From Picochlorum sp. SENEW3 (lineage: Eukaryota), in contig CP120457.1 of the NCBI GenBank assembly GCA_034226945.1, positions 1,054,001 through 1,118,000 on the forward strand: a stretch of DNA of 64,000 bases, in the 5' to 3' direction. Below are positions 1,780-51,949 of this stretch, in pieces; position 1 is the stretch's first letter; each line of letters begins with the position of its first letter. Position numbers and translations under genes: made by a program. Under the pieces are notes generated by a model, which ran no database searches, had not been told where the DNA came from, and was given only the letters and a program-made list of their open reading frames with translations.

Positions 1780-3102
1780 ATGAAGCATCAGGCGACGAAT
1801 CTGCCAGCGGGTTTCCCGAAAGGATTGCATGTTTTGGTTGTGGACGAAGAGCAGAATCTCCCCGGTATCGAGGCGCAGCTGCGGCAGCCAGAGTTGCAGT
1901 ACAATGTGACCTGTGCCTGTAATGCCATGGAGGCTCTGGAGTTGTTGCGATATGCTGGTAATGGGCAAGGAGGGCGGCATAATTACACGTCATCGTTGGC
2001 TAATTATACCTATGACATCATATTGGCGGATGCCAGGCTGGTCGCCATGGAAGACTCTACGGGAAAGGCATTTGTTGATGCCTGTGAAGAGCTTCCAGTT
2101 GTCTTGATGGCAGAGCATGGAAGTCCAAAGGATGTGATGAGATCCGTGCAGCTTGGTGCTGTGGATTTTTTGGACAAGCCTCTGTCCATGTTGAAATTGA
2201 AAACTATTTGGCAGCATGCTGTGAGGAAGATGATGAGGCAGAACTCCCTCTTGTCTTTCCGTGATGCAGCTACAAGACCATGTTACTCAGCTGTTGATGA
2301 ACTGGGTATACAACCCAGTTCTATCAGTGGATGCGTTCCAAGCTCCATGACGGCTCCAATTGTGCCCGGTGCGAGCACTGGGTATGTGTGCACTGGCATT
2401 GCAGGATATGCTGGTGCCTATGGAAGCGTCGGTAATCTGAATAGCTTGGCTGAGACAAAGCAAGGAAACCAAAAGCAGGCGTGGAGATCATCTGTCGATT
2501 CCCCTCAGACACCTTCCGGAAGTGACGTGGAATTGGCAGGTGAGAGTACAAGCGCGGCGAGTGCACATAATAATACGCAGCCTGGACAGACATCCAGAGA
2601 CGTCTGCGTCCAAAGTGCAAATGGCCAGACCGACCAGGGAGGAGCTGCCATCAAATCGTCTGGAGGTGCATCTCGCACCAAGCGCTATGTGAAGAGACAG
2701 TCATCCCCCCAATTGCCACCCATGGCGTGCAAGCAAGGTAATGCGCCTGCATGCTTACCTTTGGGCGTGTCTGAATGGCCTCCCCTCGAACCTGGATGCA
2801 CCTGGGGAACGCCAGTGGGAGGGTCAGTTTTACCACCACCGCTTACGGTTAGCTACTCTGTAGCACCAAAGCCGTGCATGCTCGAGGCTGGTGTGACTCC
2901 ACAAAAATACCTGATGAAATCGAGCGTGTCGAGTCAGTCCCAAGGTCAGAGTGGAAGTCAGGGTCTGGATGGTGAGATTGTCTCGGGAGAGTTCTTCAAG
3001 AGCTCGAACAAGGCGCAATGCCCTGGCCCTATCGGATTGAAACTGAAGAAGAGTGACAGTCTGTTGGACTTGATCAACTCCACTCTCACCAAGGCGCATT
3101 AG
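1780..3102 (+). CDS. Response-regulator receiver-domain protein (APRR2/type-B-like N-terminus, no evident Myb/CCT output domain)
   Basis: FPKGLHVLVVD, DIILAD (phosphoacceptor Asp), GAVDFLDKPL, LKTIWQH; low-complexity middle; C-terminal PIGLKLKKSDSLLDLI. Confidence 0.8.
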   Translation: MKHQATNLPAGFPKGLHVLVVDEEQNLPGIEAQLRQPELQYNVTCACNAMEALELLRYAGNGQGGRHNYTSSLANYTYDIILADARLVAMEDSTGKAFVDACEELPVVLMAEHGSPKDVMRSVQLGAVDFLDKPLSMLKLKTIWQHAVRKMMRQNSLLSFRDAATRPCYSAVDELGIQPSSISGCVPSSMTAPIVPGASTGYVCTGIAGYAGAYGSVGNLNSLAETKQGNQKQAWRSSVDSPQTPSGSDVELAGESTSAASAHNNTQPGQTSRDVCVQSANGQTDQGGAAIKSSGGASRTKRYVKRQSSPQLPPMACKQGNAPACLPLGVSEWPPLEPGCTWGTPVGGSVLPPPLTVSYSVAPKPCMLEAGVTPQKYLMKSSVSSQSQGQSGSQGLDGEIVSGEFFKSSNKAQCPGPIGLKLKKSDSLLDLINSTLTKAH

Positions 3103-46347: not shown

Positions 46348-47872
46348 ATGTTCTTCGGAGGAGGTTTTCCTGGAGGGCATCCGTTTGGAGGGATGCCAGG
46401 CGGAGGAGGCCCTGTAAACAATTCAAAGTATTACGAGATTTTGGGCGTCAGCAAAGATGCAACAGCCCATGAAATCAAAAAAGCGCACAGGAAACTGGCT
46501 CTGAAGTACCATCCTGACAAAGGTGGGTCGAGGCACGATTGAACAACATGCCGATTTGAAACGCCGTTGGTTGCCGTCTGGGGTTCGGGGACGTTATTTC
46601 TACTGATTTTGTTTAATATTGGGTCATTAATGGAGATTGAATGGATCCATTGGCTACGCGGAGCAACCAAGAAGGAATCTTGTGGATTGCTTCTGGAATG
46701 TTTTGACCGAGGAGCCGACAAACTAACCAGTGTATGTGCATTTCATCGCAGGAGGGGATCAGGAAAAGTTCAAGGAGATTAATGAGGCATATGAAGTCCT
46801 TCGAGATGAGGAGAAGCGCGAAATTTACGACAAATATGGAGAGGAAGCTGTGAAAGACGGTTCTGGTATGGGTGGAGGAGCAGGCGGAGCTGACATTTTC
46901 GACCTGTTCGGTATGGGTGGTATGGGCCGCCGCAGCCAAAGAGAGAGAAAGAGCGAAGACGTCGTGCATCGCCTGAAAGTATCGTTGGAAGATATGTACA
47001 AAGGATCAACCAGGAAGCTTCAAAGCACCCGCAACATCAAATGTCCCGAATGTAATGCCACTGGCAGTAAGAGCGGGAAGAAATATCGATGCGATACCTG
47101 CCAAGGCAGTGGAATGGAGGTCAAGATGCGACAAATCGGGCCAGGGATGGTGCAGCAAATCCAGCAGCGGTGCTCTTCGTGCTCTGGTGCCGGATTCTCT
47201 TGTCCTCCGTCAGACAGATGCAGCAGATGCAATGGAAAGTGTCTGGTTGCCGACAAAAAGATATTTGAGGTTCACGTGGAAAGGGGCGCACGGCATAATT
47301 CAAAGGTTGTGTTCAGAGATGAAGCAGGGACTGATTCCCCAGATGTCCTACCAGGTGATTTGATATTTGTGTTGGAGCAGAAACCAAACGACTCCTTCAA
47401 GAGAATTGGAAACGATTTGTTCATGGAGAAATCTGTGAGTCTCGTGGAATCCCTGACCGGGTGCACCATGCACATCACTCAGCTTGATGGAAGGATTCTG
47501 GAGATGAAGACACCAGTTGGACACGTGATCACTCCAGACTCTTGGACATGCATCAAAAATGAAGGAATGCCAATCCAAGGACATCCATTTGATAAAGGCA
47601 ACTTGTACATTCACTTTACTGTCGAGTTTCCGGAGAAGATTACCGAGGAGCAGAGCAATGCCTTGAGAACAATCTTTGGCGCACCACAGTCCAATGGCAC
47701 ATCGCCCATGAATGAGGAGGACATCGAGGAGGTTGCCATGGTAACAGTGGCGGATATAGAAGAGGAAATCAAGAGGCGCAAGCAGTACGAAAGGACGTCG
47801 GGAGCTTACAACAGTGATAGTGATGATGACATGGGTGACAGACCACGAGGCGTGTCATGTGCTCAGCAGTAA
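46348..47872 (+). CDS. Type I DnaJ (DNAJA/ATJ2-like); intron 46523-46751
   Basis: HPD, G/F region, CxxCxGxG repeats, CaaX box CAQQ. Confidence 0.96.
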
Positions 47873-47955
47873 AAGCTACAGTATATTTTGCGATGTATTC
47901 TTTTCATTTTCTTTAATACTATCACATTGGTTTCCCTGCAGCATATGTGCTGTAG

Positions 47956-48181
47956 CCCACCCTATGCCGCTATGAACTATGGTTTGTACACTAGGGTACA
48001 AATGTCGGGTTCGTTCTTAGGTACAAAATAGTCAGTCCTCCTAGAGACCTGGTCAACATGTTTTCGTTGTCGAGCAACTCCCAAACCGTCACAACCAACT
48101 ACGCGACGTTTGGTCAAGTCTCCCACCAGGTAACCCAAGTCATGAGTATTCTTTCCCTCTCCGCACTAGCGTGGGTGCGGT
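47956..48181 (-). ncRNA. Putative Fanzor omega-RNA scaffold (right end); guide would extend into the flank 47955-~47936
   Basis: Stems CCGCAC/GTGCGG (48161-48180), GAGACTTG/CAGGTCTC (48115-48122 with 48044-48051) enclosing CCAAAC/GTTTGG, and TTTGTAC/GTACAAA (47983-48002), directly 3' of the Fanzor stop. Confidence 0.6.
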
Positions 48182-49397
48182 CTACCAGCAAATGCTGGCG
48201 GATGTTTCCTTCAAAAATTTGAGGAAGATGTTGAACGCTGCGAGGATGTCTCGATCAGCGTGAAAACAGCACGACTTGCATGCGAAGACCTTACTACCTC
48301 CTAATGTCTCGTGTAAAATACCACATCTACAGCACGTTTTTGTCGTATACTCTTCCCCAATAACGAACACATTTTCCCCCATCCTTTCTGCTGTTTGAAT
48401 CAATATCTCCCTAAACTTGGAATGATCATTGGTCATGACCGAGGCATATCATGTGACGGACGCTTTTGGTTCTCAAACGCCTATCAACACGTTTCGACAT
48501 ACTCTTCGACCCGAATTTTGGAATGACGATATTGTCATACATGGAACAGAGATAGTGTGCTGCTTTAAAGTGGAAATCCTTCAGAATGGACTGAAACCTT
48601 CCTGTCAAACGCTCAAACGCCATTTTCTTTCGCTTGCGTTTCCTATGGTCAGGTTCAGTATCTATACTCGACCGGAGTTTATCCAGGGCAACAAGCCTCG
48701 GGTATAACTTTGTTGCAAACCCTAGACCAAGTTCTGAGGTGCCTTCTGGAGACCATATAGACCCGAATGTTCTGACACCTGGGTCGATAGCACAGTAATT
48801 GGATATGGTCATTACCTTCTCCTCCCTTGGGACATGTACTGGAATGGCCAAGTAAAACTTGCCTTTTGTCTTCATCAACCTACAATCGTGATGTACAGGT
48901 ATCTCGATACTTTGACGCACTCTCAATACACCTTGGAGACTTCTCTTGTATATATGGACTCCTTGATGGTCAATACGGAGACCCGACGGACCTTTCTGAA
49001 TGAGAATAGATTGGTCACTGTCAGACTTCTTACGGAAACCCATTCGAAACCGTTCGATGTTCTTCCTTTTCCTGTTTGTGAGAGCAGCCTTGTATGCTCC
49101 TTGAAAATCCTTGATTGCTCCTTCTCTGATGTGCTTCGGTGTTGAAAGAAGCCACACCTTGCTACCTTGGATGTTCTTGTTAGTGACAAATCTGTTCCGT
49201 AGCCATTGAAACCAGTTCTTCTTCGTCGGAATGGTTCCTAGATTGTTTAAGAAACCCACACATTCGTTATATGTATATCGACAGGCGCCGAACCATTGAT
49301 TAAGCACTCTTTCCTGCAGGACCAGCTGGTCTTTTGTTGGGAATATTTCAATCCGACGAATTCTTGTTAGCCCGTCTTTTGTACTTTCTCCGACCAT
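48182..49397 (-). pseudogene. Fanzor2 / IS607 TnpB RNA-guided endonuclease, frameshifted by a 13-bp insertion at 48426-48438 (frame open upstream to ATG 49892)
   Basis: RIEIFPT..Q..LNQWFGACRYTYN, RuvC-I AIDPG, Fanzor-type IVIPKF, relocated catalytic E in GEEYTTKTC, Zn ribbon CCRC..CKSC, RuvC-III DRDILAAFNI. Confidence 0.92.
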
Positions 49398-49899
49398 AAA
49401 TTTTTTAACTGAAGACCGTGACAATTGAAATGATATCATCGACGAGTTCTTCTTCTCTTGATTTATGTTTGTCGTTAGAATCGCAGACGATCCTAACTCC
49501 TTTTCGTGCCAACATGAATTCGATGATATCGAACCCGAACCGAGCAAGTCGGTCCTTGTGAGCGACCGCAACAAACGAGACGCCTCCTTGCAGCGATCGT
49601 TGAAGAATGGATCGAAGGCCTTTTCGGTTCCAATTGAGTCCGCTTCCGATATCGGTGACGACCTCCCAACCAGGCATATACCGGACCTGTCGCTCAAGGT
49701 CATCTTTTTGCCCGCTCGATGATACTCTACAGTAACAGATTTGCGCTTGTTGCTTACCATCTTGAACCTCAATCCCATAATGCCTTTGTCCACTTGGCTG
49801 CACGACATATTTGATGCGGTCATTGTTCGCCCATTTGACAATGGTCTGACCAGAGACTCCGAAATGCTCGGCTGCTTTTTATCGCGACACATACTGCAT
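49348..49899 (-). pseudogene. tnpA: IS607 TnpA (MerR-like HTH + serine recombinase) with in-frame TAA at 49881-49879 and 49407-49405
   Basis: MQYVSR*KAAEHFGVSGQTIVKWAN, YCRVSS..QKDDLERQ, DIGSGLN..RKGL, AHKDRLARFGF, ELVDDIISIVTVFS*KIYGRRK. Confidence 0.92.
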
Positions 49900-50032
49900 A
49901 TTAATGATACATTATTTATGACTGATTAGCGCAATCATGTACTCTTATATAGAGTTATTCACAATTAAGTCAACTGCTGAAGCCCAATACTGAGAGAAGC
50001 TCTCATCAGTTCAAGTTAAATCTGCAGTCTAC

Positions 50033-50121
50033 TCTGGTCTGTATTTTGATTTTTTTAAAGTCATATTTTTAGTCGTATTTCAGTATACTGTGGCTGTGAG
50101 AAGTTAGAAATACAGACCAGA
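50033..50121. repeat. Perfect 14-bp inverted repeat enclosing 61 bp (MITE-like remnant?)
   Basis: TCTGGTCTGTATTT (50033-50046) and AAATACAGACCAGA (50108-50121). Confidence 0.65.
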
Positions 50122-50233
50122 ACTTCTCTCCAGCGTTGTTGACCAAGAATTGTTGAAAAATAGTGGTGAGTCCTGAGAAGGGACGCTGACCATTCAATAT
50201 ACAAATTTCAAGTGAAATATTTCGTTTCGTAGC

Positions 50234-51949
50234 ATGGCAGAACAGTCAGCAGCCTGCCACTGCACATGTTGCAGAAAAAATTCTCGTTCTTCTTTGGAGT
50301 TGAGGGAGCTGCACGCCAGGACATTATCGGAGATGAGGGGCTCCATCAGCAGCCTTACCACAAAGTACAAGTCGACGCTAGAGGCGATGGAAACACTTAA
50401 AAGGGAATCGGAGGAGAACAGAAGGCTAGGTGCCATGGCAGCCAATTCTGCTCAGATACACTGTGATGAGATTAAGAATGGCTTGCAGGCAATGTCTCTC
50501 GATGCAAACGAGTTGGTTCAGATTCTTTCGACTGAACTGAGCTCGGTGAAGGAAGAAAGGGATAAATTGAGGAGAAACCAAGACGTGCTATGCAGTAAAC
50601 TGTCCAGTATGTCCCAACCTGGTGTGGAGGAGAGAGCCGTTCTGGTTGGGGAAATTCAGGATCTAACGCGGTCTCGAGAAACTCTTCAAGTTTTGATAAG
50701 TAATTTGAGGACCAAGTGCTCAGACCTGGAGGCCACGGTTGCTTCGCTCCAGGATGAAAATGCGCGCCTGTTGCAGCGGGAACCCACAGATGCTCCTGCA
50801 GTGGATGGATTGAGGACCAAGTGCTCAGACCTGGAGGCCACGGTTGCTTCGCTCCAGGATGAAAATGCGCGCCTGTTGCAGCGGGAACCCACAGATGCTC
50901 CTGCAGTGGATGATTTGAGGACCAAGTGCTCAGACCTGGAGGCCACGGTTGCTTCGCTCCAGGATGAAAATGCGCGCCTGTTGCAGCGGGAACCCACAGA
51001 TGCTCCTGCAGTGGATGATTTGAGGACCAAGTGCTCAGACCTGGAGGCCACGGTTGCTTCGCTCCAGGATGAAAATGCGCGCCTGTTGCAGCGGGAACCC
51101 ACAGATGCTCCTGCAGTGGATGGATTGAGGACCAAGTGCTCAGACCTGGAGGCCACGGTTGCTTCCCTCCAGGATGAAAATGCGCGCCTGTTGCAGCGGG
51201 AACCCACAGATGCTCCTGCAGTGGATGGATTGAGGACCAAGTGCTCAGACCTGGAGGCCACGGTTGCTTCCCTCCAGGATGAAAATGCGCGCCTGTTGCA
51301 GCGGGAACCCACAGATGCTCCTGCAGTGGATGGATTGAGGACCAAGTGCTCAGACCTGGAGGCCACGGTTGCTTCGCTCCAGGATGAAAATGCGCGCCTG
51401 TTGCAGCGGGAACCCACAGATGCTCCTGCAGTGGATGATTTGAGGACCAAGTGCTCAGACCTGGAGGCCACGGTTGCTTCGCTCCAGGATGAAAATGCGC
51501 GCCTGTTGCAGCGGGAACCCACAGATGCTCCTGCAGTGGATGATTTGAGGACCAAGTGCTCAGACCTGGAGGCCACGGTTGCTTCGCTCCAGGATGAAAA
51601 TGCGCACCTGCTGAAGGCTCAAAGCAAGTCGCACCCTTCATCAGTTGAGAAGCTTCTCCGGCTCACAAGGGAGAATCAACACTTTGCAGTGAAGTTATCA
51701 GAGCAGGAGAACAAATCAAAGGCATTAGAATCAACAATTATGCTCCTGAATAAGTATCTTGACAGAGAGATCAATACTGGAGGAGTAGAAAATAGCTTGA
51801 TTGATATTTTGGATGACATTTCTTACATAAAGAGAACAACGAATTCACGTGAGGCCAAGGAGCTCATAGGAATGACTGAGAAAGGTTTGGAGAGAATCAA
51901 CGAACCTAGATTTCATGATTCCGGTCATCCAGTACTCCCCCAAACATGA
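50234..51949 (+). CDS. Coiled-coil protein containing a 35-aa tandem repeat
   Basis: 571-aa ORF; LRTKCSDLEATVASLQDENARLLQREPTDAPAVD[G/D] repeated. Confidence 0.8.
   Translation: MAEQSAACHCTCCRKNSRSSLELRELHARTLSEMRGSISSLTTKYKSTLEAMETLKRESEENRRLGAMAANSAQIHCDEIKNGLQAMSLDANELVQILSTELSSVKEERDKLRRNQDVLCSKLSSMSQPGVEERAVLVGEIQDLTRSRETLQVLISNLRTKCSDLEATVASLQDENARLLQREPTDAPAVDGLRTKCSDLEATVASLQDENARLLQREPTDAPAVDDLRTKCSDLEATVASLQDENARLLQREPTDAPAVDDLRTKCSDLEATVASLQDENARLLQREPTDAPAVDGLRTKCSDLEATVASLQDENARLLQREPTDAPAVDGLRTKCSDLEATVASLQDENARLLQREPTDAPAVDGLRTKCSDLEATVASLQDENARLLQREPTDAPAVDDLRTKCSDLEATVASLQDENARLLQREPTDAPAVDDLRTKCSDLEATVASLQDENAHLLKAQSKSHPSSVEKLLRLTRENQHFAVKLSEQENKSKALESTIMLLNKYLDREINTGGVENSLIDILDDISYIKRTTNSREAKELIGMTEKGLERINEPRFHDSGHPVLPQT
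50705..51610 (+). repeat. 105-bp minisatellite, 8 full units plus 1 partial, near identical
   Basis: Units start at 50705, 50810, ... 51545; the full units differ only at GGA/GAT and TCG/TCC. Confidence 0.97.

Follow-up and report, generated by a model that had tools for sequence, protein, structure and literature searches.

A probable guide-RNA scaffold forms the right end of a decaying Fanzor2-carrying IS607 transposon in a green alga

Introduction

The closest experimentally studied system to the locus described here is ApmFz2 (also ApmFNuc; PDB ID: 9b0l), the Fanzor2 of Acanthamoeba polyphaga mimivirus, which is accompanied by an IS607 TnpA (PMC11832414, PMC10530073). In the available portions of these reports, the first 45 nt of the 205-nt ApmFz2 scaffold are described as forming a pseudoknot with positions −4 to 0, including the pairs G:C(−2) and C:G(−3) (PMC11832414), and the nuclease is described as accepting all four NGGG sequences (PMC10530073). 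A bacterial system, ISXfa1 of Xylella fastidiosa, is a serine-recombinase IS607 element with a GG core and a guide that is read from the right flank. According to the available part of the preprint (bioRxiv 10.1101/2023.08.09.552727), its TnpB cleaves GGG targets and leaves CGG targets uncut, CGG precedes the guide in the occupied site, and activity requires a pseudoknot between the stem-loop apex and guide-adjacent bases. In green-algal viruses, the chlorovirus elements ISvNY2A_1/ISNY2A1 and ISvAR158_1 are known by description to combine an IS607 TnpA with a Fanzor2 and to lack terminal inverted repeats and target-site duplications (available parts of PMC3627910 and bioRxiv 10.1101/2023.08.09.552727). 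The accessible literature links Fanzor with Picochlorum through incidental mentions at most.

Here, an element of this known kind is described in a 64,000-nt stretch of the nuclear genome of Picochlorum sp. SENEW3 (the window, to which all coordinates refer). Positions 48184-47967 on the minus strand very probably constitute the gene of an omega-RNA (reRNA/fRNA) scaffold, which forms the right end of a 2016-nt IS607-type Fanzor2 element. As far as the accessible parts of the ApmFz2 reports allow a comparison, the two systems have in common the IS607 TnpA partner (PMC11832414, PMC10530073), a GGG that adjoins the left end (PMC10530073) and, as a prediction for the present family, a pseudoknot between the 5′ region of the scaffold and the bases that immediately precede the guide. 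The scaffold measures ~205 nt in ApmFz2 (PMC11832414), 218 nt in the window and 238 nt in a relative, L001. The present locus differs from ApmFz2 in its nuclease sequence, with an identity of only ~28–30% as judged by eye from the alignment, in its host, an algal nuclear genome, and in the state of the window copy, a pseudogene; the helix details of the two scaffolds are not alignable by sequence. The GGG/CGG pattern of ISXfa1, as described in the part of the preprint seen here, is found again in the present loci, at five of five readable left flanks and at six of six right ends. In contrast, ISXfa1 is bacterial, has a shorter scaffold (144 nt) and carries a canonical TnpB that lacks a long N-terminal frame.

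Genes and relatives of the element

The element is inserted in an intergenic position after a DnaJ gene. The following features make up its overall architecture.

47967..49982, minus strand: whole IS607-type element, 2016 nt, in the order left end (LE), tnpA, Fanzor2, omega-RNA and right end (RE) ending in CGG; limits taken from the X11 empty-allele contig and from homology
49960..49982, minus strand: left end with the conserved motif CT(T/G)CA(G/A)CAGTT(G/A)A, from a comparison of upstream regions
49351..49899 (low end approximate), minus strand: tnpA pseudogene, IS607-family serine recombinase (Pfam Resolvase, 3e-15; NCBIfam transpos_IS607)
48429..49892, minus strand: Fanzor2/TnpB frame before the frameshift (Pfam HTH_OrfB_IS605 and OrfB_IS605; guided_TnpB)
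48423..48435 (about), minus strand: 13-nt insertion, source of the Fanzor2 frameshift, at a place where relatives encode CLGH(A/S)KFREIL
48185..48436, minus strand: C-terminal piece of Fanzor2 in the shifted frame, with RuvC-II/III and the zinc finger (Pfam Cas12f1-like_TNB, 9.8e-17; translation)
47967..48184, minus strand: predicted omega-RNA scaffold, 218 nt, from the stop codon to the end of the RE; conserved in five relatives, with covariation

As in the IS607 family, the tnpB-type gene lies downstream of tnpA on the same strand. The tnpA fragment scores 154.3 bits against the NCBIfam equivalog model transpos_IS607 (cutoff 110), compared with 179.7 bits for tnpA of L001. Two in-frame TAA codons, at 49881-49879 and 49407-49405, occupy positions at which the relatives have Ser or Ala codons. 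The core of the TnpB-type nuclease starts at ATG 49397, with the frame open farther upstream from ATG 49892, and the TnpB/Fanzor frame ends at a TAG codon (48184-48182, minus strand). The frameshift divides the nuclease into pieces that score 71.4 and 48.3 bits with guided_TnpB, for which the cutoff is 100 and the intact relative P0007 reaches 139.7 bits. The segments IDPGVR, EEYTTKTC and ADRD, which hold the RuvC D-E-D residues, line up with the motifs of ApmFz2. The closest solved relative of P0007 is mimivirus Fanzor2 L79 (PDB ID: 9b0l; E = 5.1e-30), with residues 14–387 of P0007 aligned on residues 135–513. The first 323 residues of the window's TnpB core are 100% identical to P0003, a protein with the source name Picochlorum sp. 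SENEW3 ‘Putative transposase R104’, and metagenome relatives are 65–74% identical.

Five distinct relatives, all on metagenome or MAG contigs, were compared with the window: L001, L002, L003, L005 and L034. Loci L001 to L005 came from a scan of metagenome contigs, with L003 and L004 representing the same insertion. L034 was added from a DNA-motif scan of genome contigs, in which it was the one true relative among 34 matches; the other matches look like chance. Viral contigs yielded 183 pattern matches and no relatives in a protein-pattern scan, and seven matches in a DNA-motif scan, none of which is accompanied by a TnpB relative or ends in AGCGG. L001 adjoins a gene for an NCLDV minor-capsid P9 domain and L034 adjoins a glutaredoxin-RNR small-chain gene, and these neighbours look like those of algal giant viruses, not of bacteria. 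Assignment of the nuclease to Fanzor2 in the strict sense, within the clade of the viral Fanzor2s, is tentatively suggested by the identical protein named for Picochlorum sp. SENEW3, by the NCLDV neighbour genes of the relatives and by ApmFz2 as the nearest solved structure.

An unoccupied allele and the relatives place both ends

To locate the ends of the element, its relatives were aligned with the window and public sequencing runs were searched for the locus. For the interval 47300–50500, 21 public runs were listed and the contigs of four (X9, X10, X11 and X16) were compared. In X11, from organism C, a close relative, record 9 (1988 nt) spans 47300–47965 and continues at 49982–50500, skipping 2016 nt. 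Outside the skipped segment, ~98% of its letters match the window flanks, with 12 letter differences and 17 gap positions. At the joint, 47965/49982, three letters (GGC, minus strand) fit either side. Read on the minus strand, this unoccupied allele consists of ...GTATTGGG joined directly to CATAGGGTGGGCTACAGCAC, and the joint fixes the element as 49982..47967. Homology with L001, L002, L003 and L034 begins and stops at these same points. Terminal inverted repeats and a target-site duplication are absent, and the joint shares just the three letters GGC, which hold GG; this is the IS607 pattern. A repeat scan likewise found no inverted repeat joining the two ends. X9, X10 and X16 provided short contigs only, and a lack of cover in these runs is not evidence of absence. 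The X9 contig has 25 extra letters near 47966-47984 at this locus, and shows small insertions exactly at 47966/47967 (only two of its indels are listed).

On the left, the initial annotation had put the boundary just after TTGGG. This pentamer (49987-49983) does precede CTTCAGCAG (to 49974) on the minus strand, and the X11 joint at 49982, with its three ambiguous letters, places the left end there. On the right, the DNA after the stop codon can be aligned with the window in all five distinct relatives, ends in C(A/G)TAGCGG and is unrelated thereafter. The corresponding end in the window is 47967 (...CATAGCGG). The three CATAG repeats described earlier are present on the minus strand (47982-47978, 47974-47970 and 47966-47962), followed by GGGTGGG (47962-47956). 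The latter, which had been read as the right boundary, is not one: the five relatives and the empty allele of X11 all put the end elsewhere, 11 nt before 47956. The proposed empty site, GTATTGGGCTACAGCAC, is therefore 11 nt off from the allele found in X11, and the predicted guide is displaced by the same 11 nt; the initial annotation had itself named such a result, with an empty allele or other copies pointing to different boundaries, as one that would refute it.

TAM, recombination core and guide

The corrected ends define the flanking features that follow.

49983..49985, minus strand: GGG adjoining the left end, putative TAM, with the last two G as recombination core; found at five of five readable left flanks
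47947..47966, minus strand: predicted guide-encoding flank, CATAGGGTGGGCTACAGCAC, the first bases past the RE, with a length of 20 nt assumed
47936..47955, minus strand: guide proposed in the initial annotation; given the corrected boundary, plain flanking DNA, part of which coincides with the 3′ half of the corrected guide

The left flanks end in GGG at all five readable independent insertions (window, L001, L002, L003, which equals L004, and L034), with the ends TGGG, TGGGG, TGGG, CGGGG and TGGG. All five thus have a third G beyond the two core G of the recombinase. The right ends terminate in CGG at six of six loci, and the left flanks in GG at five of five. By analogy with ISXfa1 TnpB and ApmFz2, we infer that GGG serves as the TAM here. 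An earlier proposal of (T)GGG holds for GGG, which the five left flanks and both described systems bear out, and not for T, which is found in three of the five and is not required. GGG is not universal, since the left flank of a second X11 copy of the element ends in ...GTAGCGC; the right end of this copy, as far as the 30 loose letters show it, is ...CATAGCGTT. At this second insertion, either GGG was not used or the ends have mutated.

By analogy with the described systems, the guide should start with CATAGGGTGGG and run from 47966 downward. Its assumed length follows the 17 nt of ISXfa1 and the 21 nt of ApmFz2, and the predicted guide CATAGGGTGGGCTACAGCAC is unique within the window. The guide put forward earlier, CTACAGCACATATGCTGCAG with the start CTACAGCAC, is shifted by 11 nt, in disagreement with the X11 empty allele and with the ends of the relatives.

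Structure of the scaffold RNA

By folding energy alone, the region is only modestly better than chance: the predicted minimum free energy of 47936-48200 (minus strand) is −89.3 kcal/mol (z = −2.24), and three of 200 shuffles are equally stable. An Rfam scan of 47000-51000 at E ≤ 1 gave no match. In the comparison of related sequences, on the other hand, the support for a structured RNA after the Fanzor stop is strong. RNAalifold was given six sequences (window and five relatives, effectively five lineages) and returned a consensus of 41 pairs, 15 of which show compensatory changes, with 90.5% of cells paired. Shuffles have a mean of 5.7 ± 1.8 compensatory pairs and none of 500 reaches 15, and controls in which the partners were slid by one to three columns have zero to eight. 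The earlier suggestion that the ~220 nt after the stop fold as an omega-RNA-type scaffold is supported by this conservation and covariation among the relatives. The predicted domains are given below.

48161..48180, minus strand: stem-loop 1, CCGCAC/GUGCGG, with the invariant loop CCACGCUA; two of six pairs compensatory, cells 100% paired
48019..48158, minus strand: long-range helices P2–P4 and closing helix, round a two-arm multibranch domain; from compensatory pairs
47974..48012, minus strand: 3′ domain, with the stem GAAC/GUUC around the hairpin UUUGUAC/GUACAAA (48002-47983); from folds and relatives
47967..47973, minus strand: scaffold 3′ tail AUAGCGG, invariant in six of six, in which UAGCG (47972-47968) is the proposed 3′ pseudoknot partner

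The loop of stem-loop 1 is identical in all six sequences. Compensatory changes are concentrated in the long-range helices 3 and 4 (11 of 16 pairs) and are absent from the 13 pairs of consensus helix 5 (arm 1). Around the multibranch domain, the closing helix ACCUGGU/ACCAGGU pairs 48131-48125 with 48053-48047; in this register L005 reads AGGUUG/CAACUU and L034 reads CGGACG/CGUCUG, with five of six positions compensatory. The closing stem of the 3′ domain abuts AUAGCGG and takes the forms GAAC/GUUC, GAGA/UCUC, GAGU/ACUC or GAUU/AAUC (two of four positions compensatory). For hairpin a of this domain, a count of four of five compensatory positions is inflated by a one-pair register shift in L002; without L002 the count is one of five, plus one at a sixth position. 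Hairpin b, with four of six positions compensatory, is present together with a linker (~25 nt in all) in the five relatives and absent from the window. Folds of single sequences have the same helix order in five of six cases, and that of L003 differs because of a ~92-nt internal tandem duplication.

Some of these counts depend on how the sequences were aligned. RNAalifold on the 3′ domain alone returned zero pairs. MAFFT fails to align hairpins of differing loop length, and the helices of the 3′ domain were therefore counted from per-sequence folds in the stated registers. In the multibranch and 3′ domains it also places L005 and L034 wrongly, so that helix registers set by hand from neighbouring anchors underlie part of the covariation.

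The multibranch region had been described at the outset as closed by GAGACTTG/CAGGTCTC (also written GAGACUUG/CAGGUCUC). Both strings are present, but they do not form the conserved closing helix. The window and L003 can form this pairing; L001 and L002 each lack one of its pairs, and L005 and L034 offer nothing comparable at the corresponding positions. In alignment A5 the helix is 79% paired. We accordingly treat it as an alternative to the conserved pairing.

In stem-loop 1, the loop bases CGCUA (48171-48167) are complementary to UAGCG in the scaffold tail, and both are identical in six of six sequences. By analogy with the pseudoknots of ApmFz2 and ISXfa1, the loop is proposed to pair with these final scaffold bases. 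Because both partners are invariant, the pairing shows no covariation. The pseudoknot geometry fits only with a scaffold that ends in ...AGCGG, which provides a third argument for the corrected boundary.

Decay of the window copy

The window copy is decaying and probably unable to act alone: tnpA has two stops, Fanzor2 carries a frameshifting insertion of 13 nt, and the scaffold has lost 25 nt. The 13-nt insertion is carried by the X9 and X10 contigs as well, so it is not an assembly slip of the window record alone; it is absent from the second copy in X11, which is ~97% identical. This intact-frame copy (X11 record 10) lies at another locus of the related strain and was recovered at about half depth. 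As all three components of the window copy are broken, present activity is not claimed for it.

Alternative readings of the right end

An anatomy with the right end of the element at GGGTGGG (47956), CTACAGCACATATGCTGCAG as guide and an empty site in which GTATTGGG meets CTACAGCAC has hardly any probability left. Its appeal is understandable: GG is also present at GGGTGGG, and 11 of 13 positions agree between the left junction (TGGGCTTCAGCAG) and the flank 11 nt past the true end (TGGGCTACAGCAC), a resemblance equalled by 19 of 5000 flank shuffles. This look-alike flank probably misled the initial annotation. However, the X11 empty allele retains CATAGGGTGGG and joins 47965, not 47955, to 49982, the five relatives end at AGCGG, and the invariant UAGCG would sit 12–16 nt from the guide rather than abutting it. 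A further possibility, that the 3′ region is conserved only as DNA, as the right-end binding site of the recombinase, or as an mRNA 3′ UTR that yields no guide RNA, is considered very unlikely. IS607 ends do carry TnpA-binding repeats, direct repeats for TnpA lie within the reRNA stem-loop of ISXfa1 (available part of bioRxiv 10.1101/2023.08.09.552727), and the Rfam scan was empty. On the other side, compensatory changes keep at least six helices across relatives whose nucleases are 48–74% identical, which DNA-binding sites would not be expected to yield, and the architecture and pseudoknot position parallel those of the experimentally solved ApmFz2 omega-RNA. A role as DNA end and a role as guide RNA are, moreover, not exclusive.

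The preferred reading, a guide-RNA scaffold at the end of a decaying element, leaves the question of whether an intact Fanzor2 might serve this scaffold in trans, such that the locus still homes despite its broken genes. This is unlikely, if less so than the two readings above. The intact-frame copy in X11 would be a source of such a nuclease, and the window scaffold retains stem-loop 1, the long-range helices, the 3′ closing stem and the AUAGCGG tail. Against this, the 64-kb window has no second copy of the element by repeat scan, and its scaffold is missing hairpin b and the linker that all five relatives have. Of the four runs compared, none is a confirmed RNA library; X9 bears the label ‘RNA? 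(probably DNA)’. The only confirmed RNA runs, X17–X20, contain 5–12% of the sampled words.

Proposed mechanism and implications

With the genes, the exact ends given by the relatives and a natural empty allele, the conserved and co-varying scaffold and the GGG at the left flanks demonstrated, a working cycle for intact members of the family can be proposed; we infer transcription, RNP formation, TAM use, cleavage and homing only by analogy with the described systems. Transcription would run through the right end of the element, and the 3′ part of the transcript would fold into stem-loop 1, the long-range helices round the two-arm multibranch domain and the 3′ hairpin domain, with the loop CGCUA and the terminal UAGCG forming the pseudoknot. 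Read-through transcripts would be trimmed to the scaffold and adjoining flank, of which ~17–21 nt (CATAGGGTGGGCTACAGCAC...) would serve as guide. The serine recombinase TnpA would excise and insert the element by crossover at the GG core, leaving an emptied site in which the target of the guide comes right after the GGG of the left flank, the putative TAM. The Fanzor2–omega-RNA complex would then cut the emptied site, and the element would be regained when the break is repaired from a filled copy (homing). The occupied site would be spared, as the target is preceded there by CGG, the terminal bases of the scaffold and not a TAM.

The locus provides a base-exact natural example of Fanzor2/IS607 in a green-algal nuclear genome, with both ends, an unoccupied allele from a sister strain and a scaffold model. 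The example appears to follow the same logic of GGG (TAM) and CGG (shielded end) as the experiments on ISXfa1 and ApmFz2. It also illustrates that a guide read from a single copy can be misplaced by a look-alike flank, and a shift of 11 nt matters for experiments built on that guide. The intact relatives L001, L002, L003 and L034 offer compact pairs of nuclease and scaffold for testing.

The nuclease frame overlaps tnpA

Upstream of the TnpB core, the nuclease frame remains open over a further 176–254 codons in all six loci; it covers the entire tnpA gene in the +1 frame and has an ATG a few nucleotides past the tnpA start. Resampling of synonymous codons in tnpA gives an expectation of 5.3–7.4 stops in the +1 frame, with zero stops in 0.02–0.22% of 5000 simulations per locus. 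The observed number is zero in five of five intact loci, compared with 6–13 in the +2 frame, and in the window the tnpA frame has two stops and the nuclease frame over the same DNA is open. The +1-frame peptides are more similar than tnpA conservation would predict (identity of 0.39–0.63 versus 0.26–0.31 in simulation, with none of 1000 as high in six of six pairs), an excess that could be inflated by unsaturated synonymous sites. At identical residues, the same codon is used with a frequency of 0.48–0.68 in tnpA versus 0.34–0.46 in the nuclease core (p < 0.05 in four of six pairs). The open nuclease frame over all of tnpA in six loci suggests dual coding.

AlphaFold2 on P0005 with an eight-row alignment gave a mean pLDDT of 56.9, with residues 1–137 all below 50 and no confident fold for the extension. 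In a phmmer search of P0005 against the PDB, only residues 139–512 align to ApmFz2, and the N-terminal extension has no match to the ApmFz2 NTD. The overlap of tnpA and nuclease was not found in the accessible main text of PMC3627910 and bioRxiv 10.1101/2023.08.09.552727 or in the abstracts and excerpts returned by a literature search on overlapping frames.

Taken together, it seems rather more probable than its opposite that tnpA is read twice in this family of algal and giant-virus elements, that its +1 frame supplies the N-terminal ~165–235 residues of Fanzor2 (with an NKRKR-type basic patch) as an extension overprinted on the transposase gene and still so kept in eukaryote-associated elements, and that the family may still be mobile in Picochlorum. 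That the N-terminal frame of the nuclease lies over the whole tnpA gene bears on the origin of the Fanzor2 N-terminal domain. Finally, with regard to mobility, X11 holds both an unoccupied, GGG-bearing target and an intact-frame copy elsewhere.

Overlap of the tnpA and Fanzor2 frames

In the window element and five related elements from metagenome and genome contigs, an open Fanzor2 frame extends over the whole of tnpA, in the tnpA +1 frame (6/6 loci).

Fanzor2 frame overlapping tnpA (window or contig coordinates)
49892-49397 (-), window
1846-2355, L001
326-859, L002
770-1279, L003
102-623, L005
616-1320, L034

Synonymous resampling predicts 5-7 stops in the tnpA +1 frame and none is observed; in addition, synonymous sites are more conserved in tnpA than in the nuclease core. 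Taken together, the stop-free +1 frame and the conserved tnpA synonymous sites suggest that the N-terminal extension of the nuclease is overprinted on tnpA. Separately, in the omega-RNA region of L003 the multibranch arm is duplicated in tandem over ~92 nt (2520-2700); L004, a record of the same insertion, shows the same duplication.

Element junctions and flanks

In the right flank, 11 nt past the true element end, lies TGGGCTACAGCAC (within window 47966-47944 (-)). Of its 13 positions, 11 agree with TGGGCTTCAGCAG of the left junction (within window 49988-49970 (-)), a likeness equalled in 19 of 5000 flank shuffles. It is immediately preceded by CATAG, and the two together resemble a junction of the right end (RE) with the left end (LE). 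The look-alike is also found in the empty allele. The right junction is further crossed, at window 47966-47984, by a contig from another organism (B; record 18 of sequencing run X9). This contig has 25 additional letters at the junction, distributed over several small insertions, at least two of which fall exactly at 47966/47967.

A ~97% identical copy of the element occupies a different locus in a related strain (run X11, contig record 10, against window 47984-49982). Its word depth is about half that of the flanks (101 versus 223), and it lacks the 13-nt insertion that breaks the Fanzor2 frame in the window copy. The left flank of this second copy ends in ...GTAGCGC, not GGG, and its RE reads ...CATAGCGTT.

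Just outside the left flank of the window element, within a GC-rich stretch (0.56-0.585), a 105-nt unit occurs about 9-10 times in tandem (window 50600-51739). The units share 94-100% identity, and the array is probably a repeat within a coding region.
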